Part shown: positions 28,066 to 32,569 of the stretch, piece by piece
How positions within the stretch are numbered: the stretch's first letter is position 1
How the letters are laid out: the number at the start of each line of letters is the position of its first letter
Source of the DNA: Thermostichus sp. DRC_bins_24
Lineage (GTDB): Bacteria; Cyanobacteriota; Cyanobacteriia; Thermostichales; Thermostichaceae
Direction of reading: 5' to 3'
Length of the DNA stretch: 32,569 nt
NCBI GenBank assembly: GCA_039794845.1
Contig: JAUQVK010000026.1
Location: 1-32,569 of the forward strand
Position numbers and translations under genes: made by a program
Notes under the pieces: generated by a model
Databases searched by the model: none
What the model was told of the DNA's origin: nothing
Seen by the model: only the letters and a program-made list of their open reading frames with translations

Positions 28066-28293
28066 CTCTTAAGGGCCTTACCCTGTCAGGGGTTGATATC
28101 AAGGTCCTCGTAATGGTGCCACTATACAAAACAAATACCCGATAAATACCCGAGGTGACCCAGGCTCTAGGTCGCAAGGCCCTTCGTAAAGTCGGAAAAG
28201 GCTGTATGACAAATCAGCATTCAAGCTAAAAAGCTCGGGGATTTGACGGAGGCCAAGGTAGCTTGGCAGTGGCAACGCTCTTCCCGGATTCCT

Positions 28294-30894
28294 ATGAAGC
28301 CGTTACGCACGTTTAAGGTCACCCCCTACCTGCCCGCTGCCCTGGAAAGTCTGCGTTTTTTGGCCTACAACCTCCATTTCAGCTGGAATGTCGAAACCCG
28401 CAATTTGTTTCGTCGCATGGATCCCGATCTTTGGGATGCCTGTGCCCACAACCCGATTGCCCTTCTAGGCCAAATCCGGCAGGAACGGCTGGATGAATTG
28501 GCGGAGGATCCCGGCTTTTTGGCCCAACTGGAACGAGCTCATCAACAGCTCCACACCTATCTCAAAGGAGACACCTGGTACCGCAAACATCGCTCCACCC
28601 AAGCCGTAGAAGGGGAGTGCTACGCCTATTTCTCCGCCGAGTTTGGTTTGGCGGATTGCCTGCCCATCTACTCCGGAGGTCTAGGGGTTTTGGCGGGGGA
28701 TCACCTGAAAGCCGCCAGCGACCTGGGCTTGCCCTTGGTAGGGGTGGGTCTACTCTACCAGAAGGGGTATTTTCGCCAGTACTTAAACCCCGATGGTTGG
28801 CAGCAGGAGTGCTACCCGATCAACGAGTTTTTCAACATGCCCTTGGAGTTGCAAAAAGATGCCGAGGGTCGGGAGATCCGTATTGAAGTGGATTATCCCA
28901 ACCGCAAGGTGTTCGCCCGCATCTGGAAAGTGAACGTGGGACGGGTGCCCCTTTACCTTTTGGATACCAACATCGAGCCCAACAACCAGTACGACCAAGA
29001 CATTACTGATGAACTGTACGGCGGCGATCAGGATCTGCGCATTCACCAGGAAATCATGCTGGGGGTGGGCGGGGTGCGAGCGCTGCGGGCCCTCGGGATC
29101 CGGCCCACCGTTTACCACATGAACGAAGGGCACTCGGCCTTCCTGGCGGTGGAACGAATTCGTCTTTTCATGGCTGAGCAGGGGCTGAGCTTTGAAGAAG
29201 CCTGGCAGGTGGCCAAATCTAGCCAAATGTTCACTACCCACACGCCGGTACCCGCCGGGATCGACCTGTTTCCCCCGGACAAAATTGACTACTACCTCGG
29301 CGCCTACTACAGCCAACTCGGCCTGACTCGGGAGCGATTTCTGGCCTTGGGCCGTGAAAACACCGGCGATTTTCAGTCGCCGTTCAGCATGGCGGTACTG
29401 GCCATCAACATGGCTTCTTTCGTCAACGGGGTGAGCAAGCTCCACGGGGCGGTCTCCCGTAAGATGTTCAGTCAGTTGTGGATGGGGATCCCTTTGGAGG
29501 AAGTGCCAATCACCTCTATCACCAATGGGGTGCATGCCCGCACCTGGGTGGGAGAAGAGAACCAAGCCCTCTACGATCGCTACCTAGGGCCCGATTGGCC
29601 GGAAGCCCCTCCCTCTGACCGGCTCTGGCAGAAGGTGGATCGGATCCCGGATAGCGAACTGTGGCGTACCCACGAGCGGAGCCGCTCCCGCCTGGTCAGC
29701 TTTACCCGCGAGCGTCTGATGGCGCAGCTACACAAACGGGCGGCCTCGACCATCGAAATTCAGCGAGCCTCCGAAGCCCTCAATCCCGAGGTGCTCACGG
29801 TTGGGTTTGCCCGACGCTTTGCCACCTACAAACGCGCCACCCTTCTGTTCCGGGATCCCGAACGCTTCAAAGCCCTGGTGACCAACTCAAAGTACCCGAT
29901 GCAGTTCATCTTCGCGGGTAAGGCCCACCCCCGCGATACTCCGGGCAAGGAGCTGATTCGGCAGATTGTGCAGTTGTCCCGCCAGCCGGAGCTCCGCCCT
30001 CACCTGGTTTTTATCGAAGACTACGACATGCACGTCACCGCCATGATGGTGGCCGGTGTGGATGTCTGGCTGAACACTCCGCTGCGCCCGCGTGAGGCCA
30101 GTGGCACCAGCGGTATGAAGGCAGCCATGAATGGTGGACAGAACTTGAGCATCTTGGATGGATGGTGGGATGAGGCCGACTACTACCAAACCGGCTGGCC
30201 CATCGGTCGCGGCGAGGAATACGAGGATCGGGCCTACCAAGACGAGGTGGAGTCGAACGCCCTTTACGATTTGCTGGAAAAAGAAGTGGCCCCCACGTTT
30301 TATCAACGCACCAGCGATGGTCTACCCCACCAATGGATCCAGCGCATGAAGCAGTCGATTCGCCTCAATGCCCCTCTTTTCAGCACCCAGCGCATGGTGC
30401 AAGAATACGCCGAGCGGGCCTATATCCCCCTGAGTGACTACTACGCCCGTATGCGCACCGATGATTTTGAATCTGCCCGACGCTTCACCCGTTGGCAAAA
30501 CCATGTGCAGGAGAATTGGTACGGCATTCAGGTGCTGAGTGTCCACGTTGAAACTCAGCCCCTGTCCCCAGTCCCTACTGTCCCCACTGAGCAGGATGGT
30601 AGCACCGTGATGGCCCGAGACCCCCTGACCGTGACCGCTGAGCTCCGCCTGGGATCCCTGCAGCCGCAGGATGTGATTTTGCAAGCCTACCAGGGGCCAG
30701 TGGACGATACCGGCCATATTCAGCAGGGGCGCGCCACTCCGATGCACTACGTGGAGATGGCGGGGGATCGAGCGGTCTTCTCAGGGCAAATTAGCTATGC
30801 GGCCAGTGGCCTTCAGGGGTTGGCACTGCGGGTGATCCCCTTCCACCCCGATATGCACGATCCCTACGAGTTGCGGCTGATGCTCTGGGCCTAG
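28294..30894 (+). CDS. glgP: Alpha-glucan (glycogen) phosphorylase
   Basis: YFSAEFG, YSGGLGVLAGDH, NEGH, FARRFATYKR, PLP site EASGTSGMK. Start is probably ATG 28294. Confidence 0.95.
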   Translation: MKPLRTFKVTPYLPAALESLRFLAYNLHFSWNVETRNLFRRMDPDLWDACAHNPIALLGQIRQERLDELAEDPGFLAQLERAHQQLHTYLKGDTWYRKHRSTQAVEGECYAYFSAEFGLADCLPIYSGGLGVLAGDHLKAASDLGLPLVGVGLLYQKGYFRQYLNPDGWQQECYPINEFFNMPLELQKDAEGREIRIEVDYPNRKVFARIWKVNVGRVPLYLLDTNIEPNNQYDQDITDELYGGDQDLRIHQEIMLGVGGVRALRALGIRPTVYHMNEGHSAFLAVERIRLFMAEQGLSFEEAWQVAKSSQMFTTHTPVPAGIDLFPPDKIDYYLGAYYSQLGLTRERFLALGRENTGDFQSPFSMAVLAINMASFVNGVSKLHGAVSRKMFSQLWMGIPLEEVPITSITNGVHARTWVGEENQALYDRYLGPDWPEAPPSDRLWQKVDRIPDSELWRTHERSRSRLVSFTRERLMAQLHKRAASTIEIQRASEALNPEVLTVGFARRFATYKRATLLFRDPERFKALVTNSKYPMQFIFAGKAHPRDTPGKELIRQIVQLSRQPELRPHLVFIEDYDMHVTAMMVAGVDVWLNTPLRPREASGTSGMKAAMNGGQNLSILDGWWDEADYYQTGWPIGRGEEYEDRAYQDEVESNALYDLLEKEVAPTFYQRTSDGLPHQWIQRMKQSIRLNAPLFSTQRMVQEYAERAYIPLSDYYARMRTDDFESARRFTRWQNHVQENWYGIQVLSVHVETQPLSPVPTVPTEQDGSTVMARDPLTVTAELRLGSLQPQDVILQAYQGPVDDTGHIQQGRATPMHYVEMAGDRAVFSGQISYAASGLQGLALRVIPFHPDMHDPYELRLMLWA

Positions 30895-30932
30895 AACCTT
30901 GGTAGGGATCCCCGTATAGAGGAGAGGGTACA

Positions 30933-30994
30933 CAGTCATTGCCATTAAAGCTGAAACAGCTCCCTCCCCCCCTTCACAGCGTGGCACCGGCCGT
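30933..30994. repeat. Dispersed repeat family B, copy 3 (left half only)
   Basis: CAGTCATTGCCATTAAAGCTGAAACAGCTCCCTC...CAGCGTGGCACCGGCCGT aligns with 25157-25220. Confidence 0.7.
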
Positions 30995-31070
30995 GGAGAA
31001 GTGAGGATGGAGAAGTGAGGAGTGAGGGGGAGGATTCATTACTCACTTCTCGTTTCTCGTTTCTCTTTCC
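30995..31070. repeat. STRR-like heptamer arrays in inverted orientation
   Basis: GAGAAGT/GAGGATG/GAGAAGT/GAGGAGT, followed by CTCACTT/CTCGTTT/CTCGTTT/CTCTTTC. Confidence 0.6.
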
Positions 31071-31091
31071 TACATCGCATCTCTATATCGC

Positions 31092-31347
31092 TTTTATGGG
31101 GGGACAGGACTGAAGCAGAGGGTGTAGGCTCAGCCTTAGGACCGGGAGGCAGGGTGGGAGACGACCATGTATCGCGTGACACTTGATGTCCACCAACATA
31201 TCGACTCGCCCCACCCTGTGCTTCTCTCGATAACAAATCCTCAGAGGACGGTGCGACTACACCTTCCATCATCTTTCTTCCATAATCTTTTCGCCTGAGC
31301 AGAAGCAGTCCCGGTTGCATCACCAACTGTAGTTCGAGAATAACATC
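31092..31347 (+). ncRNA. IS110 left non-coding end, candidate bridge RNA
   Basis: Nested stems: 31107-31112/31306-31311, 31118-31127/31257-31266, 31150-31158/31210-31218, 31158-31164/31201-31207, with an internal loop and apical hairpin. Lies directly upstream of an IS110 recombinase start. Confidence 0.55.
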
Positions 31348-31600
31348 ATGAATCAGAACGTGTACGCTGCCTACATTGGGTATTGATTGGTCTGACCGCA
31401 AACACGACAGTTATCTTGACGATTGCACCACAGGTGAAATAGGAGAGTCTGTCGTTGGTACATAACCGGATGCCCTTGCTGCTTGGGTCAAGGGATGACG
31501 AGAGCGATACGGCAATGCTTTGTTGGCAGTGTGCTTAGAACAGAAGCGTGGCCCACTGATTTATGCGCTCTGCCAGTATGAAAACTTGGTGCTTTATCCC
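31348..31600 (+). pseudogene. IS110-family DEDD (RuvC-fold) recombinase, N-terminal fragment
   Basis: MNQNVYAAYIG, +1 frameshift at about 31380, then IDWSDRKHD...AVCLEQKRGPLIYALCQYENLVLYP. Two in-frame stops; truncated at 31600. Confidence 0.8.
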
Positions 31601-31614
31601 TGAAGGGGTGACAA

Positions 31615-32497
31615 TCACAGGTAGGATGCTTGTAGGATCAGCCTCATAGCCCTCTGACCTCTCTGGTAATGCTTTGTTTTGTTGCGTCTGAGTCGCATTA
31701 GCTCCTCGACTTCTGACCCGTCAACTCCCTATGAATTGACCCATAGCTGACCATATAAGCCAACATAAAAACGGCTGTGTCGACGTTCTCTGGGCTTTGG
31801 CTCCTGGATTTTACCCACATACTGCTGCAGACCTTTGTGCTTGATGACTGCTCCTGTAAAGGTAGAGCTTGTATGGGCAATTGCAATCAGTAAGACCGTT
31901 CTGATGAACCGTTCATGGCAGACATGAGTACCTTAGGGGTAAGATGAGCGATCATGCCGCCGTCTGCTCGTCATAGTTGCTACTCCCCTGCTTGTCTGCC
32001 AGTAAACCGGAAACGCTCGACCCTCCCAGACTGACCATCAGTAAGTTGATGTATCTCCACTGAGTTCGGTCTATGACTAGATACAGGATGTCTCCTGGAT
32101 GTCTCCTGGTGAGAAGCGAGTTGCTAAACAAGCAGTCAGTACAGCCCTTGCGTGGGTTTTCTACAGCAGGGCTTGTGCTTCCTTTTCTCGCGCTCCGCGA
32201 GGTGCGGAGCACTAGTCGTCTAGAAAGTGGATCCTAACTCCCACATTGTTATACGTGACTAGCGAAAGGGTTGTAACGGAAACCAAAGGTTGCTCAGACT
32301 GAGTTTGTCCAGAGACAGCAATCTTTGTATTTTTTTCGGCGACTCTCAAAAAGAATCGGAATCGGCAAGGCTGTTGCCAGGGTTTCCAGGGTGACTCGTC
32401 TGAGGACTTGCCCAAGCTGAACCAGGAGACTGAGCAGCCAATACTCGGCTGGATTGAGTTGACGATGCAGGACTGTTTGGTAGACCGGGGGGAGCAT
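31615..32497 (-). pseudogene. IS4-family DDE transposase pseudogene
   Basis: MLPPVYQ...LPIPILFESRRKK / LYLVIDRTQW..NLLMVSL / RRHSRFYVGLYGQLW..MRLRRNK..YQRG.RAM. Contains frameshifts, a MITE insertion, an 11-bp duplication and a large central deletion near 31935. Confidence 0.82.
32140..32275. mobile_element. MITE family A, copy 3 (internal deletion), inserted in the IS4 transposase
   Basis: TACAGCCCTTGCGT ... GCGAAAGGGTTGTA. Excision leaving one TA restores the frame W-F-P-L-L-T-A. Confidence 0.88.
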
Positions 32498-32569
32498 TTT
32501 TGTTAAGGTAGGCCTTGTTGACAATGAAGGGCCTACTTTTTTTACCACAATAAGGTCAATCCCTTGTCT

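Follow-up and report, generated by a model that had tools for sequence, protein, structure and literature searches.

The 32,569-nt stretch of contig JAUQVK010000026.1 analysed here (the window) carries on its forward strand, at 31094-31600, the first 507 nt of an insertion sequence (IS) of the IS110 family that measures about 1736 nt. The remnant comprises a 254-nt left end (31094-31347) and a recombinase pseudogene. Its extent has been defined by homology: in blastn searches, the elements of two relatives, L036 (positions 1-494; Oculatellaceae metagenome-assembled genome, MAG) and L001 (1-492; Oculatella sp. LEGE 06141), align to the window solely at 31094-31600. L001 is a 1736-nt contig equal to the whole element, and its first bases are the same as those at 31094. 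Together with L059 (Elainella saxicola E1), L002 (Thermosynechococcaceae MAG) and L046, these relatives show 77-81% DNA identity, and the alignment sets in at 31093/31094 wherever the contig allows; the flanks are unrelated as far as TTATGGGG (the element start, 31094-31101) and the sequence is conserved beyond. The boundary had been placed correctly by an earlier reading made from the letters alone (the sequence-only reading), as homology to five cyanobacterial elements begins at 31094. For the comparisons described below, 23 full-length homologues have been aligned and 78 loci retrieved from genome contigs, which with the window make 79 sources. A second copy of the element has not been found within the window by covariance model, blastn or tblastn, and blastn of 31094-31600 against a plasmid collection has returned no match.

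The ends of the family's elements are delimited by L003 and L049, two copies of one IS that are 99.6% identical and whose common part is exactly TTATGG...CTATGTT, with differing sequence outside. TT is found before ATGG at 26 of 27 left junctions and TATGTT is terminal in all 20 right ends, which places TT at both junctions in the relatives. Based on these counts, and by analogy with the CT core of IS621, we infer that TT (31094-31095, + strand) is the core dinucleotide; the assignment is drawn from relatives, the window copy having its left junction only.

The left end is followed by what remains of the recombinase gene (31348-31600, + strand), which corresponds to codons 1-84 of about 418 and to a DEDD/RuvC-like N-terminus. 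MNQNVYAAYIG is encoded from 31348, an extra G near 31379 shifts the frame, and a second frame (31379-31600) reads GIDWSDRKHD...CLEQ...AVCLEQKRGPLIYALCQYENLVLYP, also given as ending LVLYP, with TAA at 31463 and TGA at 31496. In tblastn, P0002, a 418-aa protein of Thermocoleostomius sinensis named 'IS110 family RNA-guided transposase' at NCBI, aligns with residues 1-11 at 31348-80 and with residues 10-84 at 31376-31600 in the other frame; nothing is found beyond residue 84, and the homology ends at 31600. Since only codons 1-84 of P0002 are represented, with one frameshift and two in-frame stops, the gene is a broken, truncated IS110-family recombinase gene. The frameshifted DEDD recombinase start described in the sequence-only reading (YIG, then IDWSD in the other frame, and CLEQ) is therefore present, and its identity as an IS110 remnant holds at 88% identity to P0002. 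The Pfam family DEDD_Tnp_IS110 (PF01548) matches the 74-residue read-through with E = 0.0015 and 18.8 bits, which lies below the family cut-off of 29 bits because just 74 residues are left. Both motifs, GIDWSD and CLEQ, are retained; neither the C-terminal Tnp domain (PF02371) nor an unbroken reading frame is present, which makes this a remnant and no whole element. A search among longer proteins has given 222 matches at E <= 0.001 among 301 candidates, the full-length ones of which combine PF01548 and PF02371. NCBIfam models run on the remnant and three downstream open reading frames (ORFs) have yielded nothing but a weak IS4 hint (E = 0.077).

Fold of the predicted bridge RNA

Judged from the comparison of homologues, the left end (31094-31347) is predicted to encode a bridge RNA of the IS621 type, in which a 5' stem-loop is followed in tandem by a target arm and a donor arm. 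That the non-coding end represents a bridge RNA had been proposed in the sequence-only reading, and the proposal agrees with the match of a covariance model and with covarying pairs. This model, R1, has been built for the tandem layout from five close sequences and run on 62 of the 79 sources, 17 loci being excluded as duplicates or for lacking the 5' region (L004, L013, L015, L018, L028, L034, L038, L039, L045, L049, L051, L055, L060, L064, L065, L071 and L075). It has produced 74 matches at E <= 0.01, including weaker full-length ones in non-cyanobacterial relatives, while extra partial matches correspond to second target-loop modules; the window copy scores 170 bits. For pair counts, the 38 matches at E <= 4e-9, all of them full-length, have been retained and the other 36 left out. 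In the resulting alignment 91.7% of cells are paired, compared with 69.2% in shuffled alignments and 36-49% with the partner slid, figures that are inflated, as the alignment was fitted to the structure under test. Changes on both sides have been found in 28 of 37 pairs, and the covariation score of 0.545 (0.165 in shuffles) is reached in none of 500 shuffles. RNAalifold, applied independently to a plain, unfitted MAFFT alignment of 26 sequences, recovers the distal hairpin of each arm as well as the donor arm's CGAA/UUCG stem (12 pairs, 6 of them compensatory). The variable stems have been lost from this alignment because they are misaligned by MAFFT, and the covariance model has therefore been used and its bias accepted. 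A scan of 30800-32569 against Rfam at E <= 10 has given no match on 31094-31347 and no bridge-RNA family.

Regarding the individual parts, the 5' stem-loop (31105-31144, + strand) is degraded in the window. In L059 it is formed by a 7-bp stem, CUGAAGC/GCUUCAG, together with CAG/CUG (z = -3.0), while the 3' arm in the window reads GCCTTAG (z = -0.32). The stem-loop is invariant in close relatives and hence comes without covariation evidence. The target-binding arm (31150-31218, + strand; helices 1-8) is composed of a basal stem, in which 31150-31164 pairs with 31201-31218, an internal loop and a distal hairpin. Its helices are paired at 74-99%, compensatory changes occur in all of helices 1-6, and the arm of the window copy folds with z = -2.93. 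The distal hairpin, GACA CTTGA TGTC (31178-31190, + strand), is also found by RNAalifold on the plain MAFFT alignment, where its pair 41-53 occurs as UA 17 times, AU 7 times and GC twice, and helix 8 is paired at 99.3%. The donor-binding arm (31220-31306, + strand; helices 9-13) comprises an outer stem (31220-28 with 31297-31306), a base stem, an internal loop and a distal hairpin. Compensatory changes have been observed in all 7 outer-stem pairs and the CGAA/UUCG base stem (helix 12) is paired at 98.6% across the family. The distal hairpin, GGTG CGACTA CACC (31250-31263, + strand; 31250-53 with 31260-63; helix 13), has changed on both sides in 4 of 4 pairs, in agreement with RNAalifold on the plain alignment. 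In the intact relative L059 the whole RNA folds better than shuffles (z = -3.0), and its arms fold one by one into exactly the shapes of the tandem layout, with z = -3.0, -3.1 and -2.7 (-2.69 for the donor arm).

Target and donor guides

For IS621-type bridge RNAs, the cited part of PMC11208160 (Durrant et al. 2024) describes the first loop as variable and target-binding, its 5' strand pairing with the DNA's bottom strand and its 3' side with the top strand over 4-7 nt. The left end, 75-100% conserved elsewhere, contains a single hypervariable block in the 5' strand of the target loop, the 8 nt that follow CCATG; among 37 distinct sequences, the six most variable guide columns hold 0.59 bit each, compared with 1.5-1.7 in the other loop strands. 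In the window, this block belongs to the predicted left target guide, TGTATCGCGT (31168-31177, + strand), which has the sense of the left flank, and the host DNA abutting the element directly outside the homology boundary, TATATCGCTT (31084-31093, + strand), is the corresponding left target. Guide and flank are equal at 8 of 10 positions, and one of the two mismatches, an RNA G against a top-strand A, would form a G-T wobble with the bottom strand. The loop strand singled out in the sequence-only reading is this guide, and the match noted there, of TGTATCGC (31168-31175) with TATATCGC (31084-31091) at 7 of 8 positions, is confirmed.

Beyond the window, guides track the adjoining flanks across the family. 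In 27 element-site pairs (the window and the 26 loci in which regular expressions found both the element start and the loop module), the match of a guide with its own flank averages 6.04 of 9 positions, compared with 5.14 of 9 with the flanks of other elements, and none of 10,000 permutations has reached the observed sum; these permutations, like the shuffles of the structure, ignore relatedness among the homologues. The window guide furthermore has U at a column where 37 of 37 others have C, and in a by-eye alignment a T is unique to its flank, the 26 others having C; the coincidence of these two unique bases supports a guide function. Still, the match in the window could be a coincidence and 31168-77 might not specify the insertion site. 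A 10-mer with at most two mismatches is not rare, as 13 such matches occur in the window (12 besides the query itself) and 13.7 are expected, similar motifs recur locally, with a flank-like copy, ACATCGCAT, at 31072-80, 13 nt upstream, and the family-wide excess is modest. The match is, however, non-random by its place: position and strand were preset by homology, it abuts the end so defined, on the same strand, opposite the hypervariable block, and for a match within 2 nt of this spot we estimate a chance of about 0.001 (from 12 matches in about 65 kb, both strands). Taking into account also the permutations, the shared unique bases, and a guide-flank geometry equal to that published in the cited part of PMC11208160, a coincidence appears very improbable.

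Two further observations concern the flanks. The left flank of the window contains two similar 9-mers 13 nt apart, ACATCGCAT (31072-80) and ATATCGCTT (31085-93), the former of which would pair fully, including two G-T wobbles, with a GCAUCGCGU guide, i.e., the window guide with the invariant C restored; this upstream 9-mer might represent a repeat local to the host DNA, or else an earlier target. In the relatives, the left flanks of L012, L036, L046, L018, L021, L064, L019, L060, L014 and L059 have sequence in common beyond the guide match, in a region 15-45 nt before the element and in different genomes (examples are GGTCGGTGTGCA and GTCCGCTGCA), and the sites of L012 and L036 are preceded by the hairpin-capable CAGCGG...CCGCTG. 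The targets may belong to a repetitive, REP-like element of the host, of the kind described for other IS110 elements.

The 3' strand of the target loop in the window, CACCAACATA (31191-31200, + strand), deviates from its relatives at 31191 (T in 37 of 37 others) and at 31194. In the relatives this strand is conserved as CUACUAACAUA, and the right junction TATG-TT-A, when reverse-complemented, gives the UAACAUA contained in it. The base following the right end TATGTT is A in 18 of 20 cases and the second base is often G (by eye), which leaves a pairing of 3-4 nt only with core and right target. After the handshake rule for bridge RNA in the cited part of PMC11208158 (Hiraizumi et al. 2024), and on the basis of the relatives' right junctions, the strand can be read as a short right target guide, AA as the core complement, and the 4-nt CAUA as a handshake guide.

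In the donor loop, UUCCAUAA is complementary to TT and the first bases of the left end (TTATGG), and AA is present in the 3' strands of both loops (CUACUAACAUA and UUCCAUAA). The predicted right donor guide, TTCCATAA (31278-85), is the reverse complement of TTATGGAA and would form 6 Watson-Crick and 2 G-U pairs with TTATGGGG; the motif is near-invariant in 37 sequences and occurs in 20 loci, in which the regular expression required it. As a candidate left donor guide we tentatively propose CUCAGRGG, represented in the window by CTCAGAGG (31240-31247, + strand), on the ground that these 7-8 nt recur, identically oriented, 6 nt inward of the core in the relatives' right ends. The sixth base of this block, A or G, is identical between left and right end in 20 of 20 elements (3 with A, 17 with G). 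Two other assignments have been discarded. A contiguous left donor guide matching CTATG-TT has not been found in the donor loop, where only the displaced CTCAGRG block matches, and for UC(U) beside the right donor guide, considered as a handshake with the last left-target bases, the flanks show no consistent match by eye.

Right ends of two relatives, L036 (4465-4493) and L016 (4530-4558), have been scanned and contain an outward-pointing promoter-like site, TTGACC-17-TATGTT, which matches the consensus and ends one base from the element end. According to the cited part of PMC11208160, the promoter of IS621 is encoded by the sequence joining right end (RE) and left end (LE), and the RNA is made from the RE-LE junction of the circular form; the site described here fits such transcription across the circle junction, which remains a role suggested by its sequence. 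The site overlaps the left half of the donor, and in an integrated copy it would also read into neighbouring host DNA.

Taken together, 31094-31600 is very probably the 5' third of an IS110-group IS with an IS621-type bridge RNA that was inserted near the phosphorylase gene and has since decayed. The element would have been inserted about 200 bp downstream of the alpha-glucan phosphorylase gene in a Thermostichus-like cyanobacterium, and its intact relatives would work like IS621. In these, the right-end site (TTGACC, 17 nt, TATGTT) would read into the left end in the circular element only, and the RNA, if it is made, would carry in its target loop a variable 5' guide that has the sense of the left flank. 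The 3' strand of this loop, CUACU-AA-CAUA, would pair with the core TT, with the first one or two bases of the right flank and, as the handshake, with the four terminal bases of the right end. Within the donor loop, UUCCAUAA would recognize TT and the start of the left end, while CUCAGRGG would have the sense of the right-end block. The window copy has retained the target arm with a guide still matching the adjoining flank, and has lost, or suffered damage to, the right end with its promoter-like site, four fifths of the recombinase, the reading frame, the donor base stem and the spacing of the donor loop.

Several points weigh against this interpretation. Besides the fitting of the alignment and the neglect of relatedness, membership among bridge RNAs rests on our own model, no Rfam family having matched. 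The guide-flank excess amounts to just about 0.9 of 9 positions over background, the guide register shifts by 0-2 nt between elements, L059 matches at 5 of 9 positions, and in the window and most relatives the left target guide stops before the core TT, unlike in IS621. The right target guide is conserved and matches TTA(G) only, the candidate left donor guide lies 6 nt off the core with a sole covarying position that represents a single evolutionary event, and the window copy offers no right junction, no right end and no empty site for comparison. A promoter scan of 30850-31400 has likewise found no promoter-like site.

Decay of the copy, the nested fold and the surroundings

The sequence-only reading had called the structured end intact-looking, which applies to the target arm (z = -2.9) and not to the 5' stem-loop (z = -0.3) or the damaged donor arm. 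In the latter, the 5' half of the base stem (31234-31237, + strand) reads CAAA in place of the family's CGAA, opposite its partner TTCG (31290-93); the responsible base, A at 31235, is G in 37 of 37 other sequences, and the base stem is lost from the fold of the window copy. A 14-nt tandem duplication (31263-31290, + strand; 31263-76 repeated as 31277-90) lengthens the donor loop and has generated two copies of the right donor guide, a mutated one, TTCCATCA (31264-71, with C at 31270 where 37 of 37 others have A), and TTCCATAA (31278-85); it is absent from L036, L059, L001, L002 and L046. Altogether, 7 columns without variation among the 37 other sequences are altered in the window, compared with 0-2 for its five closest relatives. 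One of the 7, 31170, may reflect a change of specificity rather than decay.

It is conceivable that the remnant still matters, its RNA being produced by read-through from the phosphorylase gene and acting in trans with the recombinase of intact copies in other parts of the genome, since the target arm is intact and, as stated in the cited part of PMC11208160, action in trans is possible for bridge RNAs in assays with E. coli. This is very improbable in view of the missing promoter-like site in 30850-31400, the long imperfect hairpin that lies between the phosphorylase gene and the remnant, the broken base stem and 14-nt duplication of the donor arm, the 7 altered columns, and a window that contains no other copy of the element. 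The window copy is a fossil with no working RNA.

The sequence-only reading had further proposed that the RNA adopts a nested, multibranch fold in which the long-range stems 31118-27/31257-66 and 31107-12/31306-11 enclose the target loop, which would amount to a new architecture. All four stems listed there form in the window (10/10, 6/6, 9/9 and 5/6 pairs), and the two inner ones are real, being the basal stem of the target arm; the two outer, long-range ones lack compensatory support. The collection of homologues and covariance model that had been suggested as a check has been carried out, with the result that the local arms covary and the long-range stems do not. In favour of the nested fold, all 16 long-range pairs form in the window and are contained in the minimum-free-energy (MFE) structure of 31084-31348, L046 retains 14 of them, and multi-loop donor sites are reported for many IS1111-group RNAs in the cited part of PMC11208160. 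Yet none of the 16 pairs is compensatory and 6 vary by breaking alone; L036, L059 and L001 retain 11 of 16, the others having been lost through G-to-A changes in the left arm that are not compensated; most relatives at 62-70% protein identity have another target-loop module in place of the 5' partner region; and the MFE structure of the 265-nt segment does not surpass shuffled sequences in stability (z = -0.83, with 38 of 200 shuffled sequences being as stable; z = -0.30 for the opposite strand). As the 3' arm of the 10-bp stem overlaps the donor distal hairpin, of which 4 of 4 pairs covary and which has the guide UUCCAUAA directly on its 3' side, the hairpin uses bases needed by this stem, and the tandem and nested models are therefore mutually exclusive. 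The nested fold is thus largely refuted by the comparison and hardly credible, and the ordinary tandem architecture is preferred.

Upstream of the remnant, the gene at 28243-30894 encodes an alpha-glucan phosphorylase that is 94% identical to one of a Thermostichus sp. MAG (order Thermostichales). Together with the thermophile-named hosts of the closest IS relatives, this agrees with the probable thermophile lineage proposed in the sequence-only reading, a judgement made from names only. Between the phosphorylase gene and the remnant, a long imperfect inverted repeat (30993-31075) has 30-nt arms that are 77% complementary and contains the tandem 14-mer TGGAGAAGTGAGGA twice as well as its complement. 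In a simple scan it is not terminator-like, and Rfam has returned on the hairpin (30993-31082) sub-threshold microRNA and snoRNA models only, which are taken as noise.

Sequence unrelated to the IS110 element follows to the right of 31600. An ORF on the minus strand that runs off the window edge (32294-32569) is 52-63% identical to IS4-family transposases of cyanobacterial plasmids in the best 8 of 28 matches, and the weak IS4 hint from NCBIfam (E = 0.077) falls on a further minus-strand ORF (31952-32212). The minus strand of 31601-32569 is taken to hold a second mobile-element remnant, possibly related to the truncation of the IS110 element at 31600, and the area has the appearance of a small insertion-sequence graveyard. 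In three other loci, L037, L038 and L039 (Candidatus Azotimanducaceae MAG), a repeat of about 80-130 nt that also matches the element start occurs many times in the IS110 flanks, pointing to arrayed solo left-end fragments or to a miniature element derived from it.

Relatives and known systems

The clade of the window represents a form with one target loop, whereas most relatives at 62-70% protein identity possess two tandem target-loop modules, located about 305-320 and about 180-195 nt upstream of the gene and before the donor arm (L003, L049, L012-L014, L016-L018, L020-L022, L047, L053, L054, L058, L060, L063, L066 and L073). In 20 two-module element-site pairs the guides have been found to track their own flanks, the observed value being reached by 0 of 10,000 permutations in module 1 and, in module 2, by 254 of 10,000, with relatedness ignored. 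L003 and L049, which come from one Leptothermofonsia genome, differ in this respect: the flank of L003 matches module 2 (7/9) and that of L049 matches module 1 (6/9). These sisters, with two target modules and one donor arm, might hence have two target specificities, a possibility that we regard as doubtful; the two guides of one element are often alike. A search of a full-text library has turned up no bridge RNA reported to have two target-binding loops, and a 2026 preprint (10.64898/2026.08.14.744561) describes, in its cited part, several donor-binding loops in one locus. If the assumption were true, the two modules would show how, by natural design, two classes of target can be served by a single recombinase, which is of interest to bridge-recombinase engineers.

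For the window itself the significance is very small, as it contains a dead fragment of a known mobile element and the new fold has not been upheld. That guide and target can be read in a fossil copy is an aid to the annotation of IS110 remnants missed by gene callers, and the comparative set has contributed features of the lineage, namely the putative TT core, a nearly fixed right target guide, a predicted 4-nt handshake and, in some members, two target modules. A full-text literature search (bridge RNA, IS110, cyanobacteria) has revealed no description of such an element in titles and abstract openings. The lineage, which is cyanobacterial and partly thermophilic, is apparently undescribed; the bridge RNAs predicted in PMC11208160 may already include relatives.

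Compared with its intact relatives (L036, L059, L001 and L002) and the element of P0002, the window copy has the same left-end layout, the same conserved loop frames and a single target arm, and its DNA identity with them over 31094-31600 is 78-81%. The intact elements differ in measuring about 1736 nt, in possessing a right end and an open reading frame, and in having another 8-nt guide block in each lineage, no 14-nt duplication, and G rather than A at the base-stem position.

The likeness to IS621 of E. coli, as this element is described in the cited parts of PMC11208160 and PMC11208158, concerns several levels. In both cases the RNA is located in the left end, upstream of the DEDD recombinase gene and on the same strand, and a 5' stem-loop precedes two tandem arms with internal loops, of which the target loop, lying first, is variable and the donor loop after it conserved. 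The sense of the top strand is that of the 5' loop strand, the 3' loop strand would pair with the top strand, a putative dinucleotide core stands at both junctions in the relatives, and predicted handshake bases lie beside the right target guide. The RE-LE promoter of IS621 has its counterpart in the outward site, here a consensus match only. Against the same descriptions, the putative core is TT here and CT there, the left target guide stops at the core rather than covering it, the right target guide hardly varies and would effectively read TTA(G) only, and the predicted handshake comprises 4 nt (CAUA with TATG) instead of 2. In addition, the candidate left donor guide is positioned 6 nt in from the core, both promoter-like hexamers lie within the right end, Rfam reveals no sequence similarity, and the window copy is truncated and mutated.

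The bridge RNAs of the IS1111 group, as described in the cited part of PMC11208160 (the name seekRNA appears in the cited part of PMC13604230), involve the same recombinase family and an RNA-guided choice of target. In that group, however, the RNA is located in the right end, downstream of the gene, and donor sites are often multi-loop, whereas here it lies upstream and has simple internal loops; the element is therefore assigned to the IS110 group and not to IS1111. It is, accordingly, a decayed copy of a known kind of system, whose differences from IS621 are all predicted from comparative sequence analysis.

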